Shown: positions 12,955-52,800 of the stretch, piece after piece
Layout of the letters: each line of letters starts with the position of its first letter
Position numbering within the stretch: position 1 is the first letter of the stretch
NCBI RefSeq assembly: GCF_052102835.1
Contig: NZ_JBQEIL010000004.1
Coordinates: 7,003 to 71,002, forward strand
From: Vagococcus sp.
GTDB lineage: Bacteria; Bacillota; Bacilli; Lactobacillales; Vagococcaceae
Direction of reading: 5' to 3'
Length of the DNA: 64,000 nucleotides
Program-made: the position numbers and the translations under genes
Notes under the pieces: model-generated
Database searches by the model: none
What the model was told of the DNA's origin: nothing
What the model saw: the letters and a program-made list of their open reading frames with translations, nothing else

Positions 12955-13904
12955 AGGTTTTAACAATTGGCGAAACACTCGCTTCTTTTCAACCGAATGA
13001 TCATTTGTCATTAAAAATGAGTCAAACATTATCAGCTAGTATCGCAGGGGCAGAGAGTAATGTGGCAATCGGTTTGTCTCGTTTAGGTGTTGAAACGTCA
13101 TGGTTGAGTTGTGTTGGTCAAGATGAGTTTGGCGAACGGATTCTTGCGACTTTACGTTCTGAACAAGTCAAAACGCACTTAGTCAAAAAACTGACTTCAC
13201 ATTCAACAGGCGTTTTCTTTAAACATTTTAAAGGTTATGGAGAAACCAATGTTTTATATTATCGGAGCCACTCAGCGGCCACTCAGCTTTCACAGCATTT
13301 CCAAGAATTCTCTTGGTTAGAGGGGGTAGATCTCGTTCATTTGACTGGAATTACTTTGGCAATCAGTGCTGAAAACGCTAAATTTATCATTGAATTGGCT
13401 AAAGAATTAAAGAAAAGACAGATTATTTTAAGTTTTGATCCTAATTTAAGAATGAAGCTGTGGACCTTAGACCAAGCTAAATTTTGGATTGAACAACTTT
13501 TACCATATTGCGATTGGTATTTTCCAAGTGAGGTAGAGTTTATAAAACTTCATGGTGATAAAAGTCCAAAAGAAGTGGTTAAGGAATATGAATTAACTTG
13601 TTTAACGCTTAAAGAAGGGCTAGGGGCAACTGCCTACACCGATTCTGAAGTGATTACTTACCAGGGCGCGCCAGCTGCTCATATTTTAGATACTGTAGGA
13701 GCAGGTGATGCTTTTGTTGCAGGGATGCTATATTCAATTCTTAATCATGACTTTTCGACAGAAGGCGTCTTAATAAAAAAAGCTCTACAAATAGGGCATG
13801 AAATGGGAAAAATTGCAGTTCAAACGCAAGGCGATTGGGAGAATTTACCCACGGAGTACGAATTAACGACTCTAATGGCAGAGGGACATCAAGACCTAAG
13901 ATAA
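12951..13904 (+). CDS. PfkB family sugar kinase (2-keto-3-deoxygluconate kinase-like)
   Basis: IGETL, AGAESNVAIGLSRLG, FDPNLR, DTVGAGDAF motifs. Confidence 0.85.
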   Translation: MKVLTIGETLASFQPNDHLSLKMSQTLSASIAGAESNVAIGLSRLGVETSWLSCVGQDEFGERILATLRSEQVKTHLVKKLTSHSTGVFFKHFKGYGETNVLYYRSHSAATQLSQHFQEFSWLEGVDLVHLTGITLAISAENAKFIIELAKELKKRQIILSFDPNLRMKLWTLDQAKFWIEQLLPYCDWYFPSEVEFIKLHGDKSPKEVVKEYELTCLTLKEGLGATAYTDSEVITYQGAPAAHILDTVGAGDAFVAGMLYSILNHDFSTEGVLIKKALQIGHEMGKIAVQTQGDWENLPTEYELTTLMAEGHQDLR

Positions 13905-13909
13905 TCAAA

Positions 13910-14767
13910 TCAAAAGGAAAAATTTCGTTTTCGAAAAGCACTGGGTGTTATCTGTGTTTGTTTTTTAAAAAAGGTTGAGAAGTGACTAGCAGATGAAAAA
14001 TCTAAACGTTCAGAAATATCATCCATTGTTAAATCAGTGGTTAATAATAACTCCTTAGCCTTCTCTAAACGAACACTTAAAATATAATCTCTGGGCGACA
14101 TTCCGTAAACTTTGGTAAATACATTAGTAATATATGTTCGATGTAAATGAAGTCTGTCAGCAATCGTCTGTACTTTTAAATCACTTTTAGTGGTTGTATT
14201 AATAATTTCTACAATTTCTGACGCTAAATAAATTTCATTTTGATTTAATCGTTGGTTTTGATTTTGTTCTTGTTCTTGGTTAAATTTAGCCACATTTGCT
14301 AATAATAAAGTGATATAAGCATTCAGCTCTAATTCAAAAATAGACACATCGAATTCATTATCAAGTTCAAGATGTTTTCGATTGAGTTGAAATTGTTGAA
14401 TGATGCTAACAATGATCTTTGAAATATTAGGATAGTCTTTTTCTCGGATAAGGATATTATGCGAACTATGAATGGCTCGATTGACTTCATGGTTCTCAAT
14501 ATCGAAATGAAAACCTAGAAATTCACTATCCGCAATAATCTCAGTTTCGTGAAAGAAACCGCCTTGAATAATTAAGGTATCACCAGGAAAAAGATGATAA
14601 GTATGAGACCCGACTTTTTGAAGTATTTCTCCAGAAGAACAAAATAAAAGTTCATAGTAGGGGTGACGATGCTTTTCGTAAGTCCAACCTAAATCAGCAT
14701 AAGTATATTGGAAATCTGATAATGAAATAGAACTGTAAAGACGGTTCGAATGGAAGATATAATTCAT
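13910..14767 (-). CDS. AraC family regulator
   Basis: N-terminal cupin (HRHPYYE) and C-terminal double HTH (ISERLDFSSASHFSTFFKK). Confidence 0.9.
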   Translation of the reverse strand: MNYIFHSNRLYSSISLSDFQYTYADLGWTYEKHRHPYYELLFCSSGEILQKVGSHTYHLFPGDTLIIQGGFFHETEIIADSEFLGFHFDIENHEVNRAIHSSHNILIREKDYPNISKIIVSIIQQFQLNRKHLELDNEFDVSIFELELNAYITLLLANVAKFNQEQEQNQNQRLNQNEIYLASEIVEIINTTTKSDLKVQTIADRLHLHRTYITNVFTKVYGMSPRDYILSVRLEKAKELLLTTDLTMDDISERLDFSSASHFSTFFKKQTQITPSAFRKRNFSF

Positions 14768-14815
14768 GAGTCTCTCCTTTCAATAGGTGAGTTAATTATA
14801 TCATAATAAAAAGTG

Positions 14816-14897
14816 ACTTATAATATTAAGTTTATCTAAAAAATAATTGTAAACGTTTTAGACTTATGATATTATTAAGGAACTTAATATATTAAGA
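14816..14897. promoter_or_regulatory. PTS copy-1 promoter: two ACTTAATATATTAAGT-like palindromes (probable GntR operators) and a cre-like site
   Basis: ACTTATAATATTAAGT (14816-14831), TGTAAACGTTTTAG (14848-14861), ACTTAATATATTAAGA (14882-14897). Confidence 0.6.
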
Positions 14898-14950
14898 TGT
14901 TATCTTGACATAACATCTGGCATTAACTATTTCATAAGGAGGAATTATTA

Positions 14951-15427
14951 ATGATTACAGGAGTAAGAATTGATGGTCGTTTAATCCACGGTCAAGTCGC
15001 AAATTTATGGGTTCCTAAATTAGGAATTACAAGAGTCATGGTTGTTGACAGTGATGTCGTGACTAGTGATATCGAAAAAAACAGTTTAAAACTAGCAACA
15101 CCATCCGGTATTAAACTTAGTGTGTTAACACCTGAAAAAGCCGCAACTAATCTTTTAGCAGGACGCTATGATTCGCAAAAAGTGCTCATTGTTGTGAAAA
15201 GACCAAGCTATTTGGTTAAATTAGTCGAACTTGGTATGCCGTTAGAGGTGGTTAATGTCGGAAACATGTCACGTGTGGATGGTTCAAAAACAATTACTAA
15301 ATCAGTCAATGTTTTAGATCAAGACGTTCAAGATTTTGAATTGCTTCATGCCAAAGGTGTTAAATTAATTCATCAAATGGTTCCATCAGACAATGAAAGT
15401 AGTTTTATGGAATTATTAAAAAAATAA
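14951..15427 (+). CDS. PTS mannose/fructose/sorbose family IIB
   Basis: RIDGRLIHGQV phosphorylation motif; VNVGNM. Confidence 0.95.
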   Translation: MITGVRIDGRLIHGQVANLWVPKLGITRVMVVDSDVVTSDIEKNSLKLATPSGIKLSVLTPEKAATNLLAGRYDSQKVLIVVKRPSYLVKLVELGMPLEVVNVGNMSRVDGSKTITKSVNVLDQDVQDFELLHAKGVKLIHQMVPSDNESSFMELLKK

Positions 15428-15450
15428 AATAATCTAAGGGAGTGTAACAA

Positions 15451-16344
15451 ATGGAAATAGTATGGTGGCAAATTTTATTAATCACATTATACGCAGGGTA
15501 TCAAATTTTAGATGAATTGACGATTTACTCTGGTGCAGGCTCGCCTGTTTTTGCTGGTTTGTTTACCGGAATTGTCATGGGGGATATGACCGCCGGTCTA
15601 ATCATCGGAGGAAGTATGCAGTTAACCATCCTTGGTGTTGGGGCATTTGGGGGAGCGTCAAGAATTGATGCCAACTCAGGAACGATTTTAGCAACGGTCT
15701 TCTCGGTTGGTTTAGGGATGAACCCAGAACAAGCTATCGCAGCGATTGCAGTACCTGTCGCAAGTTTAATGATCCAAATGGATATTTTAGGTCGTTTTGC
15801 GAATACTTATTTCGCTCACCAAATTGATAAACAAGTTGAAAATATGGATTACAAAAAAATTGAACGCAATTATTTAATGGGTGCACTATCTTGGAGTTTA
15901 TCTCGTGCCCTTCCTGTTTTCTTAGCCATCGCATTTGGTGGCGAAGCTGTCAATACAGTTGTACATTATTTAAATACAGATTTGAAATGGTTAGGTGATG
16001 GTCTATCAACTGCAGGAGCTATCTTACCAGCTGTCGGTTTTGCGATTTTACTTCGTTACTTACCAGTTAAAAAACACATTGCTTACTTAATCTTAGGCTT
16101 TGTAATTACGGCTCTCTTAACAACTGTCTTTGGAAACATTCAAGCTGTTGGTGGGGTAGTGGGTACATTATCAAAAGATTTCACACAAATCTTAAATGGT
16201 TTACCAATGTTAGGTATCGCATTGATTGGTTTTGCTTTAGCCTATCTCCAGTACAAACGTGCAATTGAAACACCGGTCGCAACATCAAATGGATTGACTA
16301 TCTCTGATTCAATGGAAGGGGAAATCGAAGATGACGAACTCTAA
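15451..16344 (+). CDS. PTS mannose family IIC
   Basis: Polytopic; GLIIGGSMQL..LG, GAILPAVGFAILL motifs. Confidence 0.95.
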   Translation: MEIVWWQILLITLYAGYQILDELTIYSGAGSPVFAGLFTGIVMGDMTAGLIIGGSMQLTILGVGAFGGASRIDANSGTILATVFSVGLGMNPEQAIAAIAVPVASLMIQMDILGRFANTYFAHQIDKQVENMDYKKIERNYLMGALSWSLSRALPVFLAIAFGGEAVNTVVHYLNTDLKWLGDGLSTAGAILPAVGFAILLRYLPVKKHIAYLILGFVITALLTTVFGNIQAVGGVVGTLSKDFTQILNGLPMLGIALIGFALAYLQYKRAIETPVATSNGLTISDSMEGEIEDDEL

Positions 16345-17140
16345 ATATAAGTTAACTAAAAAAGATTTTAACCAAATTAACCGTAGAAGTTTAATGGGTT
16401 TTCAGTTGGGTTGGAACTATGAAAGAATGCAAGGATCAGGTTATCTTTATACAATTTTGCCACAATTACGTAAAATTTATGGCGATGATACGCCTGAGTT
16501 AAAAGCAATGATGAAAACACATACGCAATTCTTCAACACAAGTAACTTCTTGAATACTTTGGTGACAGGGATTGACTTAGCAATTGAAGAAGAAGAAGGA
16601 GTGGACGCGAAAGAAACCGTTGCCGGTTTAAAAACAGGTTTAATGGGACCTTTCGCAGCTATTGGGGACTCAATCTTTGGCGCATTATGGCCAACAATTT
16701 TTGGAGCAGTCGCAGCCAACATGGCAGTGAACGGTAATCCCGTCGGGATGTTAATTTGGGTGCTAGCGAACGTTTTAGTAATGTACTTCAGATGGCGTCA
16801 ATTAGAATTTGCTTATAAAGAAGGGGTTTCACTAGTAACAACGATGCAAAGTAAGTTGACTGCAATCACAGATGCAGCTACTGTTTTAGGGGTTTTCATG
16901 GTTGGCGCTTTAATCGCAACAATGATCAATGTTCATATCTCATGGGCTCCAAAAATCGGAGAATTATCGATTGATATCCAAAACAGTTTAGATATGATCT
17001 TACCTCGTTTGGTTCCACTAGCGATTGTCGGAATGGTTTATAGTTTATTAGGACGTAAGAGAATGACTTCAACAAAAGTGATCTTTATCGTTTTAATTGT
17101 ATCAGTAGCATTATCAGCATTAGGTGTGATTAGCAAATAA
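16331..17140 (+). CDS. PTS mannose family IID
   Basis: WNYERMQG, FFNT, KTGLMGPFAAIGDS motifs. Confidence 0.95.
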   Translation: MTNSKYKLTKKDFNQINRRSLMGFQLGWNYERMQGSGYLYTILPQLRKIYGDDTPELKAMMKTHTQFFNTSNFLNTLVTGIDLAIEEEEGVDAKETVAGLKTGLMGPFAAIGDSIFGALWPTIFGAVAANMAVNGNPVGMLIWVLANVLVMYFRWRQLEFAYKEGVSLVTTMQSKLTAITDAATVLGVFMVGALIATMINVHISWAPKIGELSIDIQNSLDMILPRLVPLAIVGMVYSLLGRKRMTSTKVIFIVLIVSVALSALGVISK

Positions 17141-17168
17141 ATTTAAAACACAAAGGTAGGGAAAAGAC

Positions 17169-17558
17169 ATGAAAACAATGATTTTAGTCAGTCATGGCTC
17201 ATTTTGTGAAGGCTTGAAAGAAAGTGTGGAAATGATTTTAGGACCACAAGAACAATTGAAAACAGTTTCGTTATTGCCAGATGAAGAAGGCAGTGATTTT
17301 GCAGCGAAATTTGATGCGGTTGTATCAGGAACCGACGGTGACTATGTGGTTTTTGCGGACCTTTTAGGGGGAACGCCGGCTAATGTTCTAACGAATAAAA
17401 TCATGTCTGGGGAACCGATTGAAGCATATGCAGGAATGAGTATGCCGATGATTATCGCTTATTTGAATAGTGAAATGTTGGGGGAAGCTTTTGACTTAGA
17501 AAAAGCAAAAGAAAACAGCGTGGACTTAGCAGCGTACATCAAAGAAAAATTAGGATAA
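17169..17558 (+). CDS. PTS mannose family IIA
   Basis: LVSHG, ADLLGGTP, GMSMPM motifs. Confidence 0.95.
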   Translation: MKTMILVSHGSFCEGLKESVEMILGPQEQLKTVSLLPDEEGSDFAAKFDAVVSGTDGDYVVFADLLGGTPANVLTNKIMSGEPIEAYAGMSMPMIIAYLNSEMLGEAFDLEKAKENSVDLAAYIKEKLG

Positions 17559-17564
17559 AAAAAT

Positions 17565-17603
17565 AAAGGTTGGCTTATCGAATGACAAGATAAGCCAACC
17601 TTT
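17565..17603. terminator. Bidirectional terminator
   Basis: AAAGGTTGGCTTATC...GATAAGCCAACCTTT perfect 15-bp stem. Confidence 0.85.
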
Positions 17604-17616
17604 AATCTATAAAAAT

Positions 17617-18327
17617 TTAAATGGTTTCAATTTTAGTTTCATAATAGTCCCAACGTTTAAAACTTTCAATGTATTCAACGACTTGAATGTCATTAAGAAA
17701 AGTCGTTCTTTTAGCAAAGCTTGTCGGACAATCTTCACTAATTTGTAAAAGTTGAGCCGTTCTTTTAGGTGTTGGAAATTGAATTGCATAGTATTCAACT
17801 GAAGGTGAAGTAGTCAAATGAAAATTATAATCACGCCTCATCTTATCGTAAATCGAAATAAAGTTAGAGGGATCTTTAAGATCTTCTTCTTTGACGTAAT
17901 CAGAAGAAAGGTAAGTGTATTGTAAAAAGAAAGGAATACCGTTACTTTTTCGTAGTCTTTCAAAACAGTAGATTTTTTTATTGGTATCAATTTTAAGTTT
18001 TTTACGAATGGTATCATCGTTAATTTCAGTGATGCTGATGACATGGGTAGTGACATCGGCATCTTCATTGGGGAATTTATCCACATCAGTAAATCGAACA
18101 GGTTGACCTAATTTTCCTCTCGAAACAAAACGACCTTTCCCTTGAACACTATATAAGTATCCTTCACTCACTAATTCTTTTAAAGCACGAATGACGGTAA
18201 TTGAGCTAACTTGGAAGAGTTCAATTAATTCAGATTCGCTATAAAATTTATCACCAGGTTCAAATTCACCGCTCACAATTTTTTGAAGTAGCGCGTTTTT
18301 GACTTGTTGATATTTAGGGATTGCCAT
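17617..18327 (-). CDS. GntR family (HutC/UTRA) regulator
   Basis: PKYQQV...SESEL...VSSITVIRAL...QGKGRFV winged HTH plus UTRA-type C-terminus. Confidence 0.9.
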   Translation of the reverse strand: MAIPKYQQVKNALLQKIVSGEFEPGDKFYSESELIELFQVSSITVIRALKELVSEGYLYSVQGKGRFVSRGKLGQPVRFTDVDKFPNEDADVTTHVISITEINDDTIRKKLKIDTNKKIYCFERLRKSNGIPFFLQYTYLSSDYVKEEDLKDPSNFISIYDKMRRDYNFHLTTSPSVEYYAIQFPTPKRTAQLLQISEDCPTSFAKRTTFLNDIQVVEYIESFKRWDYYETKIETI

Positions 18328-18367
18328 ACTTAAACTCCTTTTTAGTCTTATTTACTTATATAGTACC

Positions 18368-18452
18368 ACTTAGTATATGAAGTGTCACCTACAAAAATGT
18401 TTGTAGTCGATTATTTTCTATGGTATATTAAGTTTAACTTAATATATTAACA
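18368..18452. promoter_or_regulatory. gntR/beta-galactosidase divergent promoter with probable GntR operators
   Basis: ACTTAGTATATGAAGT (18368-18383), half-site TATATTAAGT (18424-18433), ACTTAATATATTAACA (18437-18452). Confidence 0.6.
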
Positions 18453-18474
18453 TATTGTTTAGGAGAGGGTAATT

Positions 18475-20244
18475 ATGAATACGATAAAAATAACAGAGGA
18501 TTTTATGATCAATGGTCAACCAGTAAAATTAGTTTCAGGAGCAGTTCATTATTTTAGAATTGTTGAAGATTATTGGTACGATTCATTAGAAAAATTGAAA
18601 GAAATGGGTTGTAATGCCGTTGAAACCTATGTTCCTTGGAATTTCCATGAGAAAGAGGAAGACGTGTTTGATTTTACGTCATATCAACATAATTTAGTGA
18701 AATTTGTAAAGTTGGCCGAAGAACTTGGTTTATATGTGATTGTGCGTCCATCTCCTTATATTTGTTCAGAATGGGAGTTTGGTGGGTTACCTTATTGGTT
18801 GTTAACCAAAGACTGTCGTATTCGTTCAAGTGATCCTAAATTTATGGCTTATGTCGAGCGTTATTTCGAGCAACTTTTACCATTACTGACTCCTTTACAA
18901 TGGACGAAAAAGGGACCCATTATATTATTCCAGTTAGAAAATGAATATGGGTCATACGGTAATGACAAAGAATATTTGGAAGCCCACTATGACTTGATGA
19001 GAAAATTAGGGGTTGAAGTTCCTATTTTTACTTCAGATGGTGCTTGGGAAGAGGCACTAGAAGCAGGATATTTACCAGGGAAAGATGTTTTCCCAACAGG
19101 TAATTTTGGCTCACGAGCAAAAGAAAATATCGCTAACTTGACTCAATTTATGGAGGATAAAGGAATTGTTGCTCCAAAGATGTGCATGGAGTTTTGGGAT
19201 GGCTGGTTTAATCGTTGGAACGAACCAGTGATTAAACGAAATCCATTAGAATTACGTGATGCTGTGAAAGAAATGTATGATTTAGGAAGTTTAAATCTTT
19301 ATATGTTCCAAGGAGGAACGAATTTTGGTTTTATGAATGGATGTTCAGCTCGCGGGACGTTAGATTTACATCAAGTAACCTCTTATGATTATGATGCTCC
19401 TTTGACTGAGTGGGGAGATGTGACTGAAAAATATAGTTTACTTAAAGAAGTTTTTACAGGATCAAATGAGATCACTGTTAAGAATCACCCTAAAAAAGCG
19501 TACGATACAGCTAAACATGTGGCGTCAGTTTCTTTATTTAATACTTTAGAGTCATTATCTAAGCCTATTTATAATAAGTGGCCTTTACCAATGGAAAAAC
19601 TAAATCAAGGGTATGGTTACATTCTCTATCGTGCGAATATCGGCAAAGCTCGTCAAGTTGATAAAGTACGTGTGATTGAAGCGAGTGATCGGGTGAAGAT
19701 TTATTTAAATGAAGAAGAAAAAATAACACAATTTAAAAAAGAAATTGGTACAGAGTTTACGTTGGATTTAGAAAAACCTCAAGACAACCAATTGGATATT
19801 TTAGTTGAAAATATGGGACGTGTGAACTATGGTTCTAAATTAATCGCACCGACTCAAAGCAAAGGGATTCGTAATGGGGTGATGCTTGATTTGCATTTCC
19901 ATTCAGATTGGGAGCATTTTAATTTGGACTTGGAAGATATTTCAGCTGTCGACTTTTCAAAAGAATATACGGCAGGACCCGGTTTCCATAAATTTGAACT
20001 TGAAGTTCTTGAAAAAGCAGATACGTTTATTGATTGTCGGGGCTTTGGTAAAGGTGTTATGTTTATTAATGGTTTTAATCTAGGTCGTTACTGGGAAGTG
20101 GGGCCAATCCATTCTTTATATGTACCAGCACCTCTATTAAAAGAAGGTACGAATGAAATTATTATTTTTGAAACAGAAGGAATTTCTCAAGAAGAATTAC
20201 ATTTTACGGAGTTGCCAATTATTACCAAAATAGAAGAAAGTTAA
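18475..20244 (+). CDS. GH35 beta-galactosidase (cytoplasmic; BgaC/GnbG-like)
   Basis: SGAVHYFR, ETYVPWN, PYICSEW, QLENEYG, MEFWDGWF, YMFQGGTNFG, TSYDYDAP; no signal peptide. Confidence 0.95.
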   Translation: MNTIKITEDFMINGQPVKLVSGAVHYFRIVEDYWYDSLEKLKEMGCNAVETYVPWNFHEKEEDVFDFTSYQHNLVKFVKLAEELGLYVIVRPSPYICSEWEFGGLPYWLLTKDCRIRSSDPKFMAYVERYFEQLLPLLTPLQWTKKGPIILFQLENEYGSYGNDKEYLEAHYDLMRKLGVEVPIFTSDGAWEEALEAGYLPGKDVFPTGNFGSRAKENIANLTQFMEDKGIVAPKMCMEFWDGWFNRWNEPVIKRNPLELRDAVKEMYDLGSLNLYMFQGGTNFGFMNGCSARGTLDLHQVTSYDYDAPLTEWGDVTEKYSLLKEVFTGSNEITVKNHPKKAYDTAKHVASVSLFNTLESLSKPIYNKWPLPMEKLNQGYGYILYRANIGKARQVDKVRVIEASDRVKIYLNEEEKITQFKKEIGTEFTLDLEKPQDNQLDILVENMGRVNYGSKLIAPTQSKGIRNGVMLDLHFHSDWEHFNLDLEDISAVDFSKEYTAGPGFHKFELEVLEKADTFIDCRGFGKGVMFINGFNLGRYWEVGPIHSLYVPAPLLKEGTNEIIIFETEGISQEELHFTELPIITKIEES

Positions 20245-43744: not shown

Positions 43745-45397
43745 TTAATCATTTATCTGACTAAGATTAACTTGATAAAGTCGAATAGCTAAAAACATGT
43801 TCATCAAATGATCACTTTTGTTTAGATTAATACTTAATAATTTCTCTATTTTTTTAAATCGAGCTCGTAAAGTATTTTTATGAATAAAAAGACATTCGCT
43901 AGTATTAGTATGCGAAAAATTATTTTCGATATATGTTTCAAGAGTGTTTAAAAGTTCGCTTTTATATTGTTTATCGTGATTTATTATAGGAATAATATAT
44001 TGATTTAAAATTTGTTCAATGAATAATTCGTTAATATTACCAGCTTCATTAGTGAATAACTTTAAAATTCCTAAATCATTGTAATTTTGGAATTTTTCGT
44101 TAGATCTTCTTTTTTCAAGATAATGCAAAGAATGTTCGGCTTCTTTCCAAGAAGAACTTAAGTGATAGTAAGGAGAAGAGCCCCCAATTCCAACATAGAA
44201 AGAGTCATGTTGGAAAAAGTTAGTTAAGAATTGAACAAGAGAATTAATAAAAATATTAATATTTTTCTGTGAATCTCCAACAAGTAAGACCCAGTATTCT
44301 TGTCTTGAAAAAATCAAGATATTTTGATTTGTAAAATACGTTTTATAAAACTCATTGTAAAATTCGGAAAAACTAGTTGCTTTATGGATAAGATCATATG
44401 TTGTATTCCATTTATAATTTTTGACAAGAATAACTTGATAACTTAGTTCTAATCGAGTCCCTAGTATTAAACTATAATGATTTCGATTTTTATTAGAAGC
44501 TTTTTTAAGATTAAGCAACTCTTCAAAAGCTAAGTCTCGATAAACTAAATTTGTTTTTAGGACCTCTTGATAAAAGGTCTTTTTTAATTGATAAATAGAT
44601 TCTATGGTTTCTAATTTCGCTAATGTTTCTGGTGTGAGTATGTTAATTTCAATAGGAATTTTGATTAAAAGATAAAAAACATCATTTTTATTATCTTTGT
44701 TTTTTATAAAAATGATTTGTGAATTAGTATCTATTAATTTGTTTTTATAGCGATAACCTTGAATAATACGATTATTCATATTGTAACCAATCATTTCTTT
44801 GTGTATTAAATCTTTTGTAGTAATATTCTCAATCACTTTTTTCCATTTGTAGTCAAATGAAGCATCTAACAAGTTGAAACGACTGTCTGTAATTGCAATA
44901 GACAGATTTGTTACGTTGTAAATAGATGAGCATAAATCATTTAAGCCGTGATTATCACGAAGGTAATTTAGAATAGTTTTATGAAATTTTTCGGTATCTT
45001 TAATTATATTTAATTGTTTTTGAAATTGTAGCTCTTGTACAGTTGTAGTTACTTCGCTCCATGCATAATCATCGTCAATTAAGATAATAGGGATATTGAA
45101 ATGTAGCGCTGCATCTATCTCGCTCTGAGAGATAAATTGTTTGAATTTTTTTTTAGTGATAATACCAGAAATATTTCTTTGAGAGAGTTGTTTAATAAAA
45201 TTGACATCAAAGTTATATTCCATAAAACGTCCAATGATGATGAGTTCATTTTCTTTTACCCAATTTACAATATCTGGAATATCCATGATTGTGACTGTTT
45301 CAATAGTATTAGTAAAACTTTTTTTTGTACATATTAAATCTGATGTGTTGAATAGTTCTTTTTTTAACATTTCTTTAACGCTTATCCTATTTACCAT
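43745..45397 (-). CDS. PucR/CdaR family transcriptional regulator
   Basis: N-terminal purine-catabolism-regulator domain (VTIMDIPD...WVKENEL), C-terminal LFIHKNTLRAR HTH; start moved to ATG 45397 behind GGAGG. Confidence 0.9.
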   Translation of the reverse strand: MVNRISVKEMLKKELFNTSDLICTKKSFTNTIETVTIMDIPDIVNWVKENELIIIGRFMEYNFDVNFIKQLSQRNISGIITKKKFKQFISQSEIDAALHFNIPIILIDDDYAWSEVTTTVQELQFQKQLNIIKDTEKFHKTILNYLRDNHGLNDLCSSIYNVTNLSIAITDSRFNLLDASFDYKWKKVIENITTKDLIHKEMIGYNMNNRIIQGYRYKNKLIDTNSQIIFIKNKDNKNDVFYLLIKIPIEINILTPETLAKLETIESIYQLKKTFYQEVLKTNLVYRDLAFEELLNLKKASNKNRNHYSLILGTRLELSYQVILVKNYKWNTTYDLIHKATSFSEFYNEFYKTYFTNQNILIFSRQEYWVLLVGDSQKNINIFINSLVQFLTNFFQHDSFYVGIGGSSPYYHLSSSWKEAEHSLHYLEKRRSNEKFQNYNDLGILKLFTNEAGNINELFIEQILNQYIIPIINHDKQYKSELLNTLETYIENNFSHTNTSECLFIHKNTLRARFKKIEKLLSINLNKSDHLMNMFLAIRLYQVNLSQIND

Positions 45398-45417
45398 CTT
45401 ATACCTCCATTGTTCTA

Positions 45418-45447
45418 ACACACAAAGAAAGCGCTTTCTTTGTGTGT
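45418..45447. promoter_or_regulatory. Perfect 30-bp palindrome with cre-like core
   Basis: ACACACAAAGAAAGC|GCTTTCTTTGTGTGT between the divergent pucR-like and transcarbamylase genes. Confidence 0.7.
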
Positions 45448-45518
45448 CTTTATACAATATATTCTACTCTATTTTTCAATTATTATAAAGGCATCAAGTT
45501 AAAGGAGAGAAACATATT

Positions 45519-46457
45519 ATGAGAAATCGTTTTAAAGGAAAAAATTATCTAGCATTTAAGGACATGACAAAAGAAGAAATTGAGTTTATTACAGACTTAT
45601 CACTGGATTTTAAAAAGAAATGGACTGTTGGTGAACCACATGAATATTTAAAAGGTCAGGTATGGGCAGCTCTATTCGAAAAAAATAGTACTCGTACTAG
45701 AAATGCATTTGAAAGAGCAGCGGCAGATTTAGGTGTTAAAGTTGTTTATTTAAGACCAGATGAAATGCAGATGTCTCGTGGCGAACCTCTTAAAGATACC
45801 GCACGTATTTTAGATCGTTATTTTGATGGATTATTCATTCGTACATTTGGTCATGAAATTGTTGAAGAGTGTGCTGAGTGGATGCAAAACCCAATTATTA
45901 ATGGTCTGACTGCGTTAGAGCATCCAACACAAGGTATCGCTGACTTAATGACAATTAAAGAAAAATTTGGAAAATATGAAGGTTTAAAAATGTGTTATGC
46001 GGGTAATCTTTATAACGTTGCCTATACGACAATGATTTTCTGTGCAACTTTAGGTATTGATCTTTACTTAGCTTGTCCAGCTGAATTGAAACCAGATCCT
46101 GAAATCATGGAAGAAACAATGAAACGAGCAAGACTTTCAGGTGCGAAGATTGTCTTTACAGAAGATTTTAATGAAGCACTTAAAGATGCAGATATCGTTT
46201 ATGGTATGTCTCAATACAGTATGGGACAACCAGAAGAAGAAATTGAACATCTTAAAAAAATATTTGCACCTTATCAAATTACAATGGATGCAATGAAAAA
46301 AGCTAAAGAAAATGCCATTTTCATGCATTGCTTACCAGCTCATCGTGGTGAAGAAGTTACAGATGAAGTAATGGAATGTGATCAATCTGTTATTTTTGAT
46401 GAGGGTGAAAACCGTATGCATTCAATTAAAGCAATTTTAGCTGCAGTAGCTGACTAG
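45519..46457 (+). CDS. OTCase-fold carbamoyltransferase with an atypical amine-substrate site
   Basis: STRTR, HPTQ, HCLP and SMG present; the usual GDxxNN reads GNLYN and TDVWxSMG reads GMSQYSMG. Confidence 0.85.
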   Translation: MRNRFKGKNYLAFKDMTKEEIEFITDLSLDFKKKWTVGEPHEYLKGQVWAALFEKNSTRTRNAFERAAADLGVKVVYLRPDEMQMSRGEPLKDTARILDRYFDGLFIRTFGHEIVEECAEWMQNPIINGLTALEHPTQGIADLMTIKEKFGKYEGLKMCYAGNLYNVAYTTMIFCATLGIDLYLACPAELKPDPEIMEETMKRARLSGAKIVFTEDFNEALKDADIVYGMSQYSMGQPEEEIEHLKKIFAPYQITMDAMKKAKENAIFMHCLPAHRGEEVTDEVMECDQSVIFDEGENRMHSIKAILAAVAD

Positions 46458-46468
46458 GAGGAAAGTAA

Positions 46469-47413
46469 ATGTCAAAACTAGTAATTGCTTTAGGAGGCAA
46501 TGCTTTAGGAAAAACTGTATCGGAGCAAAAACAAGCAACAAATCTTGTTGCTCCGATTCTTGTTGATTTGATTGAACAAGGACATGAAATAATAATAACA
46601 CATGGAAATGGTCCACAAGTAGGCTTAATTAATCATGCATTTACAGATTTTATTGAAGAAACAGGAATAATTGATGAGATGCCATTTTCAGAATGTAACG
46701 CTATGAGTGAAGGTTACATAGGATATCATATTCAAAACTCAATAAAAAATGAATTAGAAAAGAGAAAGTTGTCAAAAACTGTGTGTACTTGTGTAACTCA
46801 AATTTTAGTAGATAAAGATGACCCAGCATTTTCTAAACCAACAAAACCAATCGGAGTTTTTTATGATAAAAAACGAGCAATGGAATTAAAAGAAACAAAA
46901 GGGTACCAAATGAAAGAGGATTCAGGACGTGGATATCGCCGAGTTGTTGCATCACCAATACCTATTGATATTTTAGAGAAAGAAGCAATATTAGCTTTAT
47001 TCTCTGCAGGTCAAATAGTTATTGCTTGCGGTGGCGGTGGTATTCCAGTTGTGAAAGAAGAAAATACTTACTACGGTGTTGATGCTGTTATAGATAAGGA
47101 TTATTCTAGTGAGAAATTAGCAGAATTAGTTTCTGCAGATATTTTTATTATCTTAACAGCAGTGGATCAAGTTTTTATCAATTATGGAACAGAAGAAGAA
47201 AAAGGGTTGGATAAAATAACGAAAAATGAAGTAGAAAGATTAATAGCTGAAGAACAGTTTGGTGAAGGTTCGATGTTACCTAAGATTCAAGCAAGTCTTG
47301 ATTTTGTAACACATGCTTCAAATAAAAAAGCGATTATCACTTCTATAGAACAAATAAACAATGCATTATCTGGCCGTGGAGGTACCGTGATTATTGGAAA
47401 TGAGGTAGGCTAA
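46469..47413 (+). CDS. arcC: Carbamate kinase
   Basis: ALGGNAL, THGNGPQVG, KPIG, GYRRVVASP, GGGGIPV, AVIDKD, GSMLPK. Confidence 0.95.
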   Translation: MSKLVIALGGNALGKTVSEQKQATNLVAPILVDLIEQGHEIIITHGNGPQVGLINHAFTDFIEETGIIDEMPFSECNAMSEGYIGYHIQNSIKNELEKRKLSKTVCTCVTQILVDKDDPAFSKPTKPIGVFYDKKRAMELKETKGYQMKEDSGRGYRRVVASPIPIDILEKEAILALFSAGQIVIACGGGGIPVVKEENTYYGVDAVIDKDYSSEKLAELVSADIFIILTAVDQVFINYGTEEEKGLDKITKNEVERLIAEEQFGEGSMLPKIQASLDFVTHASNKKAIITSIEQINNALSGRGGTVIIGNEVG

Positions 47414-48921
47414 TGGAAAATGTAAAAGAAAAAAAGAAGTTTAAATCCCCCAATACGTATGTCATCATATTTATTGTTCTCTTAATTGTTGCTATTTTAA
47501 CCTGGTTTATACCAGGTGGTAAATATGAGTTGGATGCTTCCGGACGAGCAATTGCTAATACATATACAAGAATTGCTTCAAATAGACAAGGTTTATGGGA
47601 TGTTATTATGGCACCAATCATTGGAATGGTTGGTAATGAACAAGTTTCGGGAGCGATAACTATTTCATTAAACGTCATGTTGTTTGGTAGCTTTTTAGAA
47701 ATGATGGATACAACTGGTGCTATCAATATAGCTTTAAAGGGTGTTGCACGTAAATATCAAAAAAATTATTATGTTTTGATAACAGTATTAACATTTATTA
47801 TGGGTATTTTCGGAACGGTTCAAGGAGCGTATGAGGAAGGATTTGTTTACTTACTGATGTTCTTACCGATTATACTGGCACTTGGTTTAGATACTATTGT
47901 AGCTTTGATGATTGTTATTTTTGGTACTCAGGCTGGTTGTGCAGCCTCAATTGTCAATCCGTTTTCAACAGGAATTGCATCAGGGATTGCAGGTATTAGT
48001 CCCGGAGATGGAATTGTTTATCGTACGATTATCTTTGTTGTATTAATGTCATTGTGCTCTTTTATGATTTGTCGTTACGCAAATCATATTCAAAAAAATC
48101 CTGAAAAATCTGTTCAATACTTCAGACATGAAAAAGATTTATTAGAATTTGCTGGTGGTACTGACGATGTGGAGAGTCTAAATAAAAAACAAAGAAAAGT
48201 ATTTAGCGTTTTTATTCTAACTTTTGTTATTATGATCACTTCACTTATTCCGTGGACATCATTAAATCCTAATTGGACATTCTTTGAGAACGTTACAAAA
48301 TGGCTGATGAATGCTCCAATCATCGGTACGATTTTGGGTAAAGATTTAGTTCCATTTGGTGAATGGTACTTTAATGAAATTAACGGTTTACTAATTATTA
48401 TGACAATTGTTGTAGGAATGATTATGGGATATACCATTGATAAAACCATAAATATCCTAATTAAAGGAGCGGCAGCGTTGGTCTCAACTGCATTTATAGT
48501 TCCTTTAGCTAGAGGGATCCAAGTAATTATGACTGATGGAAATATCACAGCGACCGTTTTAAATGCAACTGAAAAAACATTAGGTAGTTTACACCCGGTT
48601 GTATTTATTATTGTTTGTTTCTTAGTTTATATCTTATTAGCAATGTTTATCCCAAGTTCAACAGGCTTAGCAGCAGCAACAATGTCGATTATGGCACCAT
48701 TAGCTGTTTTTGCTGGTGTATCTGAATCTGCAATGGTTGTTGTTTATAACCTAGCGTTAGGCTTTGTTAAAATTTTTGCACCAACATCAATTATTGTAAT
48801 GACTTGTACACAGGCGGTGCACGTCGATTATGGATCATGGCTTAAAGCAACAGGAAAATATATCGCAGTATTCTTTGTAGCTTGTTGCTTAATTTTATTA
48901 GTTAATGTATTAGTATTCTAA
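47413..48921 (+). CDS. YfcC-family transporter (probable substrate/product antiporter)
   Basis: PNTYVIIF, IPGGKY, NPFSTGIA, PSSTG, APTS motifs; many TM segments. Confidence 0.88.
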   Translation: MENVKEKKKFKSPNTYVIIFIVLLIVAILTWFIPGGKYELDASGRAIANTYTRIASNRQGLWDVIMAPIIGMVGNEQVSGAITISLNVMLFGSFLEMMDTTGAINIALKGVARKYQKNYYVLITVLTFIMGIFGTVQGAYEEGFVYLLMFLPIILALGLDTIVALMIVIFGTQAGCAASIVNPFSTGIASGIAGISPGDGIVYRTIIFVVLMSLCSFMICRYANHIQKNPEKSVQYFRHEKDLLEFAGGTDDVESLNKKQRKVFSVFILTFVIMITSLIPWTSLNPNWTFFENVTKWLMNAPIIGTILGKDLVPFGEWYFNEINGLLIIMTIVVGMIMGYTIDKTINILIKGAAALVSTAFIVPLARGIQVIMTDGNITATVLNATEKTLGSLHPVVFIIVCFLVYILLAMFIPSSTGLAAATMSIMAPLAVFAGVSESAMVVVYNLALGFVKIFAPTSIIVMTCTQAVHVDYGSWLKATGKYIAVFFVACCLILLVNVLVF

Positions 48922-48948
48922 ATTAAATAAGAAATGGAGCGTAATGAA

Positions 48949-49803
48949 ATGACTGAAAAATTTTATGTGAAAAATGGAACAAATGTATTGAAAAAAGTGC
49001 TGGTGTGCTCACCACGATTTTATAAATTTAATGGAATTAATGATATTACTAAGAGTTGGATGGAAAAAGGAGAAACAGAGAAAAATGAATTAATGGTTAA
49101 AGAATGGGACACATTAATTCAAGCTTATAAAGATAATGGAGTGGAAGTAGTAGAAGTGGCTTCATATGAAGAGTTGGAAGTTCAAACATTTGCACGTGAT
49201 TTTGGTGCAATGGTTAAAGAGGGGGCAATTATTGGTAAGTTTCGACACCCAGCACGTCAAAAAGAAACAGAAGTTTATGAACAAAAATTAAAAGAAATGG
49301 GAGTTCCAATCATAGCACGTTGTAATGCAGGGTGTTTTGAAGGTGGCGATTTCTGGATGATTGATGATCATACAATTGCATTTGGATTAGTCGATCGTAC
49401 AGATAAAGCAGGCGTTGATAATTTACGAGAACAATTAGAAAAATTCGGTTATACCGTAGTAGGTGTTGAATCACGTCCTACTAACTTGCACTTAGATATG
49501 ATTTTTAATATTGTAGCACCTAAGGTTTGTATTGCTGCAACAGATGAATTACCATATCAATTTTTAGAGATGCTAAAACGTCGTAACTTCAAAATTATTC
49601 ATGTTCCAAGTGAATTAGTATTTAAACATGGTTGTAACGTTCAAGCATTAGGAAATGGTAAAGTTTTAGGTATTGAGAACAATAAATCGGTTAACGAAGC
49701 AATGGAAGCTGAAGGGTTAGAAGTAATCAAATTACCATTGGAACAAATTTTAAAAGCAGGCGGTGGACCACACTGTATGAAATTCCCTGTTTCAAGAGAT
49801 TAG
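48949..49803 (+). CDS. Short pentein (amidinotransferase/DDAH-like guanidino hydrolase)
   Basis: FARD, FEGGD, LHLD, GGPHCM catalytic motifs; ~284 aa, much shorter than canonical ArcA (~410 aa); probable start ATG 48949. Confidence 0.85.
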   Translation: MTEKFYVKNGTNVLKKVLVCSPRFYKFNGINDITKSWMEKGETEKNELMVKEWDTLIQAYKDNGVEVVEVASYEELEVQTFARDFGAMVKEGAIIGKFRHPARQKETEVYEQKLKEMGVPIIARCNAGCFEGGDFWMIDDHTIAFGLVDRTDKAGVDNLREQLEKFGYTVVGVESRPTNLHLDMIFNIVAPKVCIAATDELPYQFLEMLKRRNFKIIHVPSELVFKHGCNVQALGNGKVLGIENNKSVNEAMEAEGLEVIKLPLEQILKAGGGPHCMKFPVSRD

Positions 49804-49818
49804 AAAAGAGGCAAATAA

Positions 49819-50805
49819 ATGAAAATAGTAATTACTGATTATCCTGATTCAATGATGCCTACTCATGATTATGAAAGAGAAATCTTAATAGATGGTTTGG
49901 GTGAATGTGAAATTGTCGTTTATGAGTATGCGGATGAAAAGCGTGAAGAGTTTTTTGAGGTAATTAAAGATGCTGATGCTATTTTGACTGCTTTTACTAA
50001 GATTGATGCAGAAGCAATGGATCATGCCAAAAATTTGAAATTAGTTTCTCTAAATGCAACTGGGTATGATAACGTCGATCTAGTTGAAGCAAACCGAAGA
50101 GGAGTTGGTGTTTGTCCAGTAGGGGAATATTCAACTATAGATGTAGCTGAATTTACAATTACATTAATGTTGACATTGATAAAAAATTTAAAAGCCTATA
50201 TTCAAGATATCGATATCAATCATAAATGGCGTTATGACGTAAAGCCACCAAATGCACGCGTCGAGGATATGACACTAGGTGTTTTTGGATTTGGAAAAAT
50301 AGGTAAAGCTGTAGCAACTAGAGGCAAGGCTTTAGGTATGACTGTCATTACTTGCGATCCTTATGTTGACCAGAAACTAGGTGATGAGTACGGTGTTATA
50401 TTTGTAAGTAAGGAAGAACTTTTAGCAACATCTGATGTAATTACAAATAATATGAATCTAAATGAGAGTAATCAATCATTCTTTAATTTATCAGTTTTTA
50501 AAGAGATGAAAAAAGCACCATTTTTTATTAATATGGGGCGTGGTGCGAGTGTAAATGAATCGGACTTAAAAATAGCTCTAGATAATGGTTTAATAAAAGG
50601 AGCTGGTCTTGATTTACTTGCTGATGAGACACCAGATTTAGAAAACCATCCCTTAGTTGGATTAGATACTGTGATCATAACACCTCATGCAGCTTTTTAT
50701 TCATCAACTTCAATAAAAGAATTGCAGAGATTATCTACTGAGAATATAGTATATTACTTAACGAATCAAAAAGATAAAGTTTTTAAACTTGTTAGCGATA
50801 ATTAA
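49819..50805 (+). CDS. D-isomer-specific 2-hydroxyacid dehydrogenase (CtBP-like)
   Basis: ATGYDNVD, GFGKIG, INMGRG, LDLLADE, TPHAAFYS. Confidence 0.9.
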   Translation: MKIVITDYPDSMMPTHDYEREILIDGLGECEIVVYEYADEKREEFFEVIKDADAILTAFTKIDAEAMDHAKNLKLVSLNATGYDNVDLVEANRRGVGVCPVGEYSTIDVAEFTITLMLTLIKNLKAYIQDIDINHKWRYDVKPPNARVEDMTLGVFGFGKIGKAVATRGKALGMTVITCDPYVDQKLGDEYGVIFVSKEELLATSDVITNNMNLNESNQSFFNLSVFKEMKKAPFFINMGRGASVNESDLKIALDNGLIKGAGLDLLADETPDLENHPLVGLDTVIITPHAAFYSSTSIKELQRLSTENIVYYLTNQKDKVFKLVSDN

Positions 50806-50843
50806 AAAAAGACCGCTCTTCTGTGTGGGAGGAGCGGTCTTTT
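50806..50843. terminator. Bidirectional terminator
   Basis: AAAAGACCGCTC...GAGCGGTCTTTT. Confidence 0.85.
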
Positions 50844-50849
50844 GTGTTT

Positions 50850-51878
50850 TTATAAATAAGCGTTTAATGGATAAGTCGTGAATTCTGTTGTTTCCAGTTT
50901 TTCACAGGTAACAAATCCGTTAGGAGCTTTAAGTAATGATGGAATACGATTGACAACAGTTGCACAAGTATGAGCGACTGTATCTGGTTTTTCTAATGAG
51001 AAAATCATGTCAGGTTCTCCAGTGATTTTCCAATCACACATATCACCATCTGTTGGGCGGTAAACTTTACCAATACACTCTACTTCGAGTTCAGGACCTT
51101 GGTAGGTTTGAATACTGGTGACAGCAGACATTCCCGTAGCATCGCCAGCAGGAATAGTCCGACCAAGCGTTTCAGAGTAGATATCTTCATCTAAAGTTAT
51201 AGCCACATTTTTTTGTGAAATCGACTTGATTGTCCAATTCATTTTAGAACAAATTGCTTCAGCAGCATTCCACATATAAGAAGGTAAGCTTTCTGCTTGT
51301 GCGATGTCACTTTCAAACTTAGCCATTGGATAACCAGCACCGTGAGCTTCAGCTAAGGCTAAGCCATAGTCTTCAACATTATAACTTACTGCACCTTTTA
51401 CTTTAGTTACACCATTCATCCCGGCCATCATAAGTGTTGGCATATTGATCCAATAAATATCTTGCATTCCGCTACCTGTAATCGTGACATTATGTTTTTT
51501 TGCTAGTTTATCTAAATAATTAGTTTCAGCAGGTGATGTATTCCATGGATAGATGGCTTCTTCACAAGTTGTGATAATATTCACATTATTTTTGATGCAA
51601 AGTTCAAAGAAAGGCATCATTTCAGGCATGTAACTAAAGATAGTAACAACAGCAACATCAGCATCTGTTTCATTTAAAACTTTTTCAGCATCATCAGAGA
51701 TAAGTACGCCCATTTTCCGGCCGAGATTAGCGAAATCACCAATATCCGTACCTACTAACGCTGGATTATTATCGATTGCTCCGACAATTTCAGCACCATG
51801 ATCAACTAAATATTTAATCATTACCTCAGCCATTTTTCCACAACCAAATTGAATTACTTTAACTTTGTCTAACTTCAT
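50850..51878 (-). CDS. 2,4-diaminopentanoate dehydrogenase family / native amine dehydrogenase-like oxidoreductase
   Basis: FGCGKM Rossmann motif, CEEAIYPW, TGSGMQDIYW, YNVEDYG, TCATVVNRIP; resembles recalled CfusAmDH/MsmeAmDH sequences. Confidence 0.75.
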   Translation of the reverse strand: MKLDKVKVIQFGCGKMAEVMIKYLVDHGAEIVGAIDNNPALVGTDIGDFANLGRKMGVLISDDAEKVLNETDADVAVVTIFSYMPEMMPFFELCIKNNVNIITTCEEAIYPWNTSPAETNYLDKLAKKHNVTITGSGMQDIYWINMPTLMMAGMNGVTKVKGAVSYNVEDYGLALAEAHGAGYPMAKFESDIAQAESLPSYMWNAAEAICSKMNWTIKSISQKNVAITLDEDIYSETLGRTIPAGDATGMSAVTSIQTYQGPELEVECIGKVYRPTDGDMCDWKITGEPDMIFSLEKPDTVAHTCATVVNRIPSLLKAPNGFVTCEKLETTEFTTYPLNAYL

Positions 51879-51921
51879 AAAAATAACCTCCCAAATTATT
51901 TGATAATCATTTCACAATCAT

Positions 51922-51952
51922 AGTATAATCTCTATAGTAACTATAGAGTCAA
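51922..51952 (-). promoter_or_regulatory. MerR-type promoter of the dehydrogenase gene
   Basis: Minus strand TTGACT, 19-nt spacer, TATACT; dyad CTCTATAGT-A-ACTATAGAG (51930-51948) across the spacer. Confidence 0.85.
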
Positions 51953-51963
51953 GGAGAGTTATC

Positions 51964-52800
51964 ATGAATGAAAAACTAAAAATTGGTGATTTTGCTAAAA
52001 TGAATGATGTATCTGTTCAAACACTGCGTTATTATGAAAAAATCGGTTTATTAAAGCCTTATTTTATTGATTTAGAAACAAATTATCGATATTATCATCT
52101 GCTCCAATCACCAATTATTGATAGTATTCAGTATTTAAAGGAATGTAATTTATCACTGACTGAAATTAAAAGCTTTCTGTCTGAAGAAAAATCATCGCTT
52201 GTTTTACATCAAAAAATGGAAAAAGAACTTCAAACTTTGATTGACGAGCAAGAAAAAATAAGTCAACGAATGCAACGAATTAAAAGTTTTATGGTGAATA
52301 ACCAAACGTACCAGCAAAACTTAAAGAAGACCGCTTTTGAAATAATCAACTTGCCAGAGCGTTATCTTTATCAGTTCGAAATCCCTAAAAATATTTATGA
52401 CTTGAATCCGAATGACTATGAACATTATTTACGTGATTTTAAAGCTCATCTTAATCAAGAAAAGTTACATGTGATTCACTTTAGTCAAGTGGGATCAGTT
52501 ATTCCTCAAGCTCTATTTGAACGAAATGAAATGATTTCAAAACAAATGTTTGTTTTTTGCTCAAGTAAATTGAAACAACTGAATCAAGTTAAAACCTTAC
52601 CAGCTCATTTATACGCAGTAGATTACTGTCATTCATTTGGAGATGAGATGGGAAAAATCAAAGAATTAAAGAAAAAAATTAAAGCCAATGGTTATCATGT
52701 AGCTGGAGATTATTTGTGTGAGGTACTCAGAGAATTACCACAAATTGATCGTTTAGAACGTAATATGTTTATTCGTTTACAAATCCCAATTGAATCTTAG
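51964..52800 (+). CDS. MerR family regulator with BmrR/GyrI-like ligand-binding domain
   Basis: KIGDFAK..VSVQTLRYYEKIGLLKP...NYRYY; 278 aa with C-terminal effector domain. Confidence 0.92.
   Translation: MNEKLKIGDFAKMNDVSVQTLRYYEKIGLLKPYFIDLETNYRYYHLLQSPIIDSIQYLKECNLSLTEIKSFLSEEKSSLVLHQKMEKELQTLIDEQEKISQRMQRIKSFMVNNQTYQQNLKKTAFEIINLPERYLYQFEIPKNIYDLNPNDYEHYLRDFKAHLNQEKLHVIHFSQVGSVIPQALFERNEMISKQMFVFCSSKLKQLNQVKTLPAHLYAVDYCHSFGDEMGKIKELKKKIKANGYHVAGDYLCEVLRELPQIDRLERNMFIRLQIPIES

Follow-up and report, generated by a model that had tools for sequence, protein, structure and literature searches.

An ornithine transcarbamylase-like family without the ornithine-binding aspartate, encoded in a conserved deiminase-like operon of Vagococcus and other bacteria

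Results

Genes and features of the operon

We analysed a stretch of 64,000 nucleotides from Vagococcus sp. (assembly GCF_052102835.1, contig NZ_JBQEIL010000004.1, positions 7,003 to 71,002 of the forward strand), which is called the window below and whose own coordinates are used throughout. The gene in question encodes a transcarbamylase that resembles ornithine carbamoyltransferase (OTC) but carries Met in place of the Asp that binds ornithine. It is the first gene of an operon that also encodes a carbamate kinase, a carrier, a short protein of the pentein fold with motifs of arginine deiminase (ADI) and a dehydrogenase. The operon and the region in front of it contained the following features.

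43745..45457, minus strand: divergent PucR-family transcriptional regulator (Pfam PucR 59 bits, HTH_30 62 bits)
45418..45447: perfect 30-bp palindrome (15+15), candidate operator in the divergent promoter region (ACACACAAAGAAAGC/GCTTTCTTTGTGTGT)
45519..46457, plus strand: OTC-like transcarbamylase of the Asp-less type A (M230 at the Asp231 position; G-N-L-Y-N), 312 aa
46469..47413, plus strand: carbamate kinase (TIGR00746 arcC 367.7 bits, cut-off 358.25), 11-nt gap after the transcarbamylase
47413..48921, plus strand: DcuC/YfcC-family carrier (Pfam DcuC 283 bits; NCBIfam YfcC 189 bits, under its cut-off)
48934..49803, plus strand: 289-aa pentein ('mini-ADI'), presumed guanidino-acid deiminase
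49819..50805, plus strand: D-isomer-specific 2-hydroxyacid dehydrogenase (under all NCBIfam cut-offs)
50807..50843, plus strand: intrinsic terminator ending the operon (16-bp stem and T tract)

The transcarbamylase reading frame was preceded by the ribosome-binding site AAAGGAG, 8 nt upstream, and its product matched both OTCace Pfam domains. The genes for the carbamate kinase and the carrier overlapped by 1 nt, and the gaps between carrier and pentein and between pentein and dehydrogenase were 12 and 15 nt. ArcE, a DcuC-family carrier that exchanges arginine and ornithine, serves ADI operons (PMC5300872), and by analogy the carrier of the window, a member of the same family, is presumed to exchange substrate and product. 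Situated between the genes for PucR and the transcarbamylase, the palindrome is contained in the first 20 codons of the longest PucR reading frame, so that translation of PucR probably begins some 60 nt further in, at the ATG of MVNRISV. The palindrome was not conserved at the five related loci examined.

Second-substrate pocket of the transcarbamylase

The carbamoyl-phosphate site was found to be complete, with S57-T-R-T-R61, H135-P-T-Q138, H270-C-L-P273 and the distal R299. An earlier note on this DNA, made from the letters alone, had described the STRTR, HPTQ and HCLP motifs as intact and had placed Met at the Asp position of the DxxxSMG loop and G-N-L-Y-N at the GDxxNN loop; alignments with the P. 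furiosus OTC 1pvv and with E. coli ArgI bear out all of this. The 240s loop reads Y228-G-M230-S-Q-Y-S234-M235-G236, thus without the Asp of the OTC motif, and the loop equivalent to GDxxNN reads G162-N163-L164-Y165-N166. In the HMMER alignment with 1pvv (E 8e-79) there were no insertions or deletions in either second-substrate loop, DADVIYTDVWASMGQ being paired with DADIVYGMSQYSMGQ in the 240s loop and YVGDGNNVAHS with YAGNLYNVAYT in the other.

In OTC, ornithine is bound by D231, S235, M236, N167 and K53 (PMC4581275), and D263, S267, M268 and N199 are the counterparts in the human enzyme (PMC8517447). All of these ligands except the Asp were present in the transcarbamylase, as N166, K55, S234 and M235. 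The residues compare as follows in a MAFFT L-INS-i alignment, with E. coli ArgI (NC_000913) as the ruler and numbered as in the literature, without the initiator Met.

E. coli OTC K53: K55, kept
E. coli OTC R57: R59, kept
E. coli OTC R106: R108, kept
E. coli OTC H133 / Q136: H135 / Q138, kept
E. coli OTC N167: N166, kept
E. coli OTC S235 / M236: S234 / M235, kept
E. coli OTC C273 / L274: C271 / L272, kept
E. coli OTC R319: R299, kept
E. coli OTC D231: M230, changed
E. coli OTC D163: N163, changed
E. coli OTC N166: Y165, changed
E. coli OTC W233: Q232, changed

With D231 changed to Met, D163 to Asn and N166 to Tyr, two acidic residues have been lost and none has been conservedly gained. Another acidic residue at the place of D231 would have spoken against the earlier note; no conserved compensating one was detected in the 240s loop, in the GDxxNN loop or beside HPxQ, either in the alignment or among 120 relatives. 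The AlphaFold2 model of the transcarbamylase (pLDDT 92.3, pTM 0.92) superposed on OTC crystal structures with TM 0.94-0.97 and rmsd 1.5-1.7 A, which supports the residue equivalences, and the best structural matches were unknotted OTCs.

Conservation, phylogeny and annotation of the Asp-less clade

At the D231 column, Asp was absent from all 120 of the nearest database relatives (54-100% identity). Met was found in 89, Asn in 28, Val in two and Ala in one, and K53, M236, G237, C273 and R319 were invariant or almost so. Met is not the sole replacement even within the same operon type, where some orthologues have Asn (YGNAQYSMG). Proteins with 70-94% identity, in which the motif was fixed, came from Lactobacillales, Clostridia, Paenibacillus, an actinomycete metagenome-assembled genome (MAG) and a Klebsiella-like genome. 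All canonical OTC rows displayed in the MAFFT L-INS-i alignment (three from relatives, E. coli ArgI and P. furiosus) had YTDVW-SMG, and both rows displayed that resemble putrescine carbamoyltransferase (PTC) had YTDVWYGLY and FEQSSTRTR, as expected from the statement of the earlier note, in agreement with PMC4581275, that PTC keeps the Asp and changes SMG. In a scan of the 150 best library representatives (50% identity) the motif was matched in 95, with Asp at the position in 91 of these; a few top library matches were additional Asp-less variants.

In a maximum-likelihood tree of 87 sequences a single branch (SH-aLRT 99, length 0.31) separated all 48 Asp-less sequences from the 39 canonical OTC and PTC-like ones, with one change of the Asp state on the tree. 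The branch was tested on an unrooted tree from a quick tree search, with SH-aLRT as the sole support measure. Rooting with the genome's own aspartate transcarbamylase (ATCase) was dropped, as its branch of 9.5 units placed an artefactual root on the query. Judged from the sequences, the transcarbamylase is a separate branch, and the change in its pocket is a family trait and not a chance substitution. A larger Asp-less clade takes it in, as type A, among several types.

Public names of the 120 closest proteins were 'ornithine carbamoyltransferase' wherever a name was given. With the OTC model the canonical OTCs of relatives scored 390-450 bits and the Asp-less family 334-360. As the transcarbamylase of the window lies above the cut-offs of the NCBIfam OTC equivalog models TIGR00658 and NF001986, it is systematically mislabelled as argF or arcB by pipelines, and the expectation that a distinct branch would be hidden under the OTC label has thus held. 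Scores with the models of other transcarbamylases were far below their cut-offs: 269 against 500 for putrescine (TIGR04384), 148.7 against 288 for AOTCase and 79 against 453 for YgeW, which places the protein outside the knotted family. With FEKNSTRTR, SMG and a length of 312 aa, the transcarbamylase had neither the loop nor the Gln nor the C-terminal extension of PTC, and with GMSQYSMG and HCLP it had neither the loop nor the HDLP of the DAP/DAB transcarbamylases.

Conservation of the operon and its sister types

The type A gene set was present in 20 of the 25 genome loci found with the transcarbamylase protein. These came from Vagococcus, Enterococcus, Streptococcus, Lactobacillus jensenii, Atopobacter, Isobaculum, Ignavigranum, Paenibacillus and an actinomycete MAG. 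The same operon was also found in a Klebsiella-like contig, an Oscillospiraceae MAG and Enterocloster, which brings the total to more than 20 genomes from several phyla, and one Enterocloster variant alone accounted for 182 indexed blocks in the assembly collection. The PucR gene adjoined the transcarbamylase in 24 related loci. The DcuC carrier was present in 19 and the dehydrogenase in 17 of the 20 type A loci, the latter also at the operon end in the Klebsiella-like, Oscillospiraceae and Enterocloster clusters. The carbamate kinase varied in position and was sometimes absent from the locus. Canonical OTC (at least 389 bits) was also encoded in 13 of 14 genomes with a type A operon; it was missing only in V. 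lutrae and in the genome of the window.

Type B is the type A operon with Asn in place of Met, and the dehydrogenase and the DcuC carrier were confined to these two types. The other Asp-less types had the following loops and genes.

Type C, YGMT(H/Q)YAMG: carbamate kinase, PucR, transcarbamylase, Gate protein, APC permease, pentein
Type D1, YGNTWHSMG and GD(V/I)YN: transcarbamylase, APC permease, pentein, carbamate kinase, PucR or LysR
Type D2, Y(S/A/G)NVWTSMG: adjoins a class III aminotransferase and TRAP DctM
Type E, Y(T/P/A)(A/V)T(H/Q)YSMG: one cluster with TRAP DctQMP, aminotransferase, M20 peptidase and pentein, another type C-like

Since types C, D and E are without the dehydrogenase, the core consists of pentein, transcarbamylase and carbamate kinase, to which the dehydrogenase is an add-on that does not define the clade. 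The TRAP and APC carriers and class III aminotransferases of the sister types fit omega-amino-acid products that bear a carboxylate. The type A locus of Isobaculum melis (13415-19000) encoded regulator, transcarbamylase, carbamate kinase, DcuC and pentein but had no dehydrogenase gene behind the last of these, so that at least one lineage can do without this enzyme.

A Gate-domain (nucleoside-recognition) membrane protein of about 450 aa recurred in type A and type C/E clusters, 3' of the dehydrogenase in six loci (L005, L009, L013, L020, L078 and L079) and after the transcarbamylase or carbamate kinase in two (L025 and L074), and might serve the pathway as a second transporter. The type E metagenome contig L073 (1-16945) carried the transcarbamylase together with TRAP DctQMP, a UbiD-family decarboxylase, an M20 peptidase, a polysaccharide-deacetylase-fold protein and a pentein, and nearby a class III aminotransferase and a molybdoenzyme of the xanthine-dehydrogenase family. 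This cluster may be another guanidino or ureido catabolic route. Downstream of the operon in the window (50850-52800) a gene resembling 2,4-diaminopentanoate dehydrogenase (142 bits, cut-off 400) uses the bidirectional terminator of the operon and is divergent from a MerR-family regulator; both were dropped as operon partners, as they stand beside the operon in no conserved way.

The pentein

The motifs FxRD, EGGD, HLD and GGGxHC of ADI were aligned in the 289-aa pentein. Compared with the ADI of M. arginini, for which the roles of the residues have been described (PMC3474736), the catalytic and guanidinium-binding set was found as C281 (C398 in ADI), H186 (H269), E136 (E213), D89 (D161) and D188 (D271). 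The Cys-His-Glu/Asp set and the guanidinium-binding Asp of a pentein hydrolase are thus in place, and catalysis is predicted from them. Further equivalences were F86 (F158), R108 (R180) and R155 (R232), the two Arg being presumed, by analogy, to bind the carboxylate. All eight residues were invariant in 21 orthologues.

The protein differs from ArcA in that it is without the 85-residue helical insertion of ADI and scored 76 bits with TIGR01078 (cut-off 489); in structure, the ArgZ N-domain and DDAH came closest to its size (TM about 0.8), and sequence identity was about 20%, as with any solved pentein. In a profile alignment the column of ADI N155 coincided with that of D60 in P. aeruginosa DDAH, and it held V83 in the pentein, Tyr in type D and Leu in type C. 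We take N155 and D60 to be specific contacts of the alpha-amino group. With the carboxylate-binding elements kept and a polar residue replaced by a hydrophobic one at the alpha end of the substrate, the pentein and the transcarbamylase appear to have changed in parallel.

A true DDAH yielding citrulline is unlikely here, as the pentein has motifs of the ADI type and about 20% identity to DDAH, and the genome has a separate gene resembling the P. aeruginosa DDAH. This second pentein (272 aa), encoded on another contig of the same genome (1285-2103, minus strand), was very similar to P. aeruginosa DDAH over its full length and retains the Asp of FPDACFVED; its gene adjoins genes for a pyridoxal phosphate protein of the alanine-racemase fold and a GntR regulator. 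Any citrulline formed by a DDAH would meet no canonical OTC in this genome that could use it.

Discussion

Proposed pathway

From the gene content, which was observed, and from residue analogies we infer a chemistry for the operon. We lean towards an ATP-yielding, ADI-like operon in which the transcarbamylase would act phosphorolytically and the substrate would be an omega-guanidino acid with the arginine skeleton and a distal carboxylate, without an L-alpha-amino group, and neither arginine nor citrulline. The carrier would bring in the external guanidino acid in exchange for the internal amino-acid product, in the manner of DcuC/ArcE-type carriers. The pentein would convert the guanidino group to a ureido group with release of ammonia, the transcarbamylase would cleave the ureido compound with phosphate to carbamoyl phosphate and an omega-amino acid, and the carbamate kinase would form ATP. 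Because the D-2-hydroxyacid dehydrogenase is conserved in operon type A, C2 is suggested to carry oxygen. Our best single guess is 2-oxo- or (R)-2-hydroxy-5-guanidinovalerate, which would be converted via 2-hydroxy-5-ureidovalerate to 5-amino-2-hydroxyvalerate. The dehydrogenase might bring the 2-oxo form into the pathway, with regeneration of NAD+. Alternatively it might oxidise the product, the 2-oxo form of which would cyclise and so pull the unfavourable phosphorolysis.

The earlier note had claimed that the carboxylate clamp is kept while the Asp for the alpha-amino group is lost, and from this that the acceptor has no alpha-amino group. The first part was established by alignment, and the second stays a proposal by analogy, which we share. 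The note had further tied the transcarbamylase to the dehydrogenase; this link proved to be conserved (17 of 20 type A loci) but does not define the clade, the other Asp-less types having no dehydrogenase.

Several points weigh against the proposed pathway. No rich source of 2-oxoarginine or argininic acid, both minor metabolites, is known in the habitats concerned. The genome of the window (99.8% complete) encodes neither another OTC nor a canonical ArcA, and its only other gene of the OTC fold is ATCase-like (probable PyrB) and lies on another contig, so that the operon could be its only arginine or citrulline route. The transcarbamylase passes both OTC models, TIGR00658 with 347.2 bits (cut-off 280.85) and NF001986 with 334.9 bits (cut-off 306). 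The absence of the dehydrogenase from sister types C, D and E and from Isobaculum means that it may be peripheral. N155 of ADI is listed among the amino and carboxylate contacts without the group being specified (PMC3474736), and the carrier belongs to a family known for arginine/ornithine exchange (PMC5300872).

Alternative substrates

These scores and the gene content of the genome would suit an ordinary catabolic OTC in a compact ADI pathway (short ADI, OTC, carbamate kinase and ArcE-type exchanger) with pocket changes that are tolerated drift, as would a pentein with all ADI catalytic motifs and both carboxylate-binding Arg, and a carrier of the ArcE type that serves ADI operons (PMC5300872). 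We nevertheless rank this explanation lowest and hold it to be improbable. Asp231, a direct ligand of ornithine (PMC4581275, PMC8517447), occurred in all displayed rows of canonical OTCs and PTC-like proteins and in none of the 120 family members, and a replacement fixed across phyla at 70% identity or more points to selection and not to drift. Furthermore, 13 of the 14 carrier genomes retain a canonical OTC, and the conserved D-2-hydroxyacid dehydrogenase would be useless to an ADI pathway. An arginine derivative with a neutral, substituted or inverted alpha-nitrogen (N-alpha-acetyl- or N-alpha-methyl-arginine, octopine or D-arginine), giving an ornithine derivative, is only slightly less doubtful and in our view quite unlikely. 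The loss of the Asp and the neighbouring change of T230 to Gly would suit a neutral or bulkier alpha-substituent, and N-acetyl- and N-succinyl-ornithine transcarbamylases set a precedent (PMC4581275). However, no deacylase, opine oxidase or racemase was among the conserved operon genes, the conserved extra enzyme, the 2-hydroxyacid dehydrogenase, would have no obvious role, and the score with the AOTCase model was far under the cut-off (149 against 288 bits).

Animal habitats are rich in creatine and guanidinoacetate, which favours a guanidino acid of another chain length without oxygen at C2, the dehydrogenase acting on something else. Examples are 4-guanidinobutyrate giving GABA, 5-guanidinovalerate giving 5-aminovalerate, guanidinoacetate or creatine giving glycine or sarcosine, and homoarginine. 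The loss of two acids would relieve repulsion if the carboxylate of a shorter substrate came near position 231, and the class III (omega-) aminotransferases and TRAP carriers of the sister clusters are typical for omega-amino and organic acids. However, the 240s loop is as long as that of OTC, F86, R108 and R155 of the pentein stand at the ADI positions that hold the five-carbon chain of arginine, and the retention of the dehydrogenase by almost every type A operon, whatever the phylum, speaks for a function within the pathway. We regard this alternative as unlikely, if the least so of the three.

PucR, dehydrogenase, transcarbamylase and carbamate kinase also prompted the idea of an oxamate transcarbamylase with a ureidoglycolate dehydrogenase. 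This was rejected, since the oxamate transcarbamylase of E. coli is AllFGH (PMC11326118), the pentein would have no role, the carrier is ArcE-like, and the geometry of SMG and N167 points to a distal carboxylate. A role like that of YgeW in reductive urate degradation (PMC12507026) was rejected too, as YgeW belongs to a different, knotted family and stands in another context.

Possible significance

If the substrate is a guanidino acid other than arginine, as we propose, the operon would encode a third energy pathway of deiminase and carbamate kinase, after those for arginine and agmatine, and would be a natural case of OTC specificity re-tuned by a few pocket residues. A bolder version, which we put forward tentatively and consider rather doubtful, is that the Asp-less clade stands for unrecognised ATP-yielding guanidino-acid deiminase pathways in at least five operon types, with type A acting on 2-oxo- or 2-hydroxy-arginine (uraemic or host-derived) by means of a new deiminase, a ureido-acid phosphorylase and a dedicated dehydrogenase. 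If true, three enzyme activities would be new, as would this means of energy gain in gut and mucosal bacteria. Among animal-associated bacteria the operon is common, and it could matter for the turnover of guanidino compounds in the host. Thousands of entries of the clade are named OTC by an equivalog model although a defining OTC ligand is missing, and relabelling them would avert false calls of arginine biosynthesis or of the ADI pathway in reconstructions of lactic acid bacteria and gut Clostridia. A full-text literature search returned no publication describing the cluster or the subfamily.

Comparison with known systems

The transcarbamylase is most like OTC (EC 2.1.3.3; 1pvv/1a1s, E. coli ArgI, ArcB), with which it shares the fold (TM 0.94-0.97), 37-44% identity and the same length, keeping STRTR, HPxQ, HCLP, R319, K53, N167 and SMG with no indels in the substrate loops. 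It differs in that Asp231 is replaced by Met (Asn in some orthologues), GDGNN by GN(L/I/F)YN and W233 by Gln or His. It also forms a separate branch, occurs together with a canonical OTC in 13 of 14 genomes and is encoded here with a dehydrogenase and a mini-pentein instead of ArcA.

Putrescine carbamoyltransferase (EC 2.1.3.6) likewise belongs, among the unknotted transcarbamylases, to the OTC branch and has a catabolic use together with carbamate kinase. It keeps the Asp, changes SMG to (Y/W)(G/W)(V/L/I), has Gln in FxQxSTRT and carries a C-terminal extension of about 20 aa (PMC4581275), and on all four features the transcarbamylase described here is the opposite. In DPTCase and DBTCase the OTC Asp is also replaced, by Thr or Ser (PMC4581275), but these enzymes have (T/S)RWQ(T/S)(T/M)G and HDLP and are biosynthetic. 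YgeW, now assigned to 2,3-diureidopropionate (PMC12507026), is similarly a catabolic transcarbamylase paired with carbamate kinase, but it is knotted and distant (79 bits, cut-off 453).

As a whole, the operon resembles those of the ADI pathway (arcA-arcB-arcC with ArcD/ArcE) and of the agmatine pathway (aguA-aguB-aguC-aguD), since hydrolase, transcarbamylase, carbamate kinase and carrier are encoded together in one regulated operon. It differs from both by its PucR-type regulator, its additional D-2-hydroxyacid dehydrogenase and its stand-alone pentein of 289 aa, compared with about 410 aa and a five-helix insertion in ArcA, and by a transcarbamylase that is neither of the OTC nor of the PTC type in its second-substrate loop.

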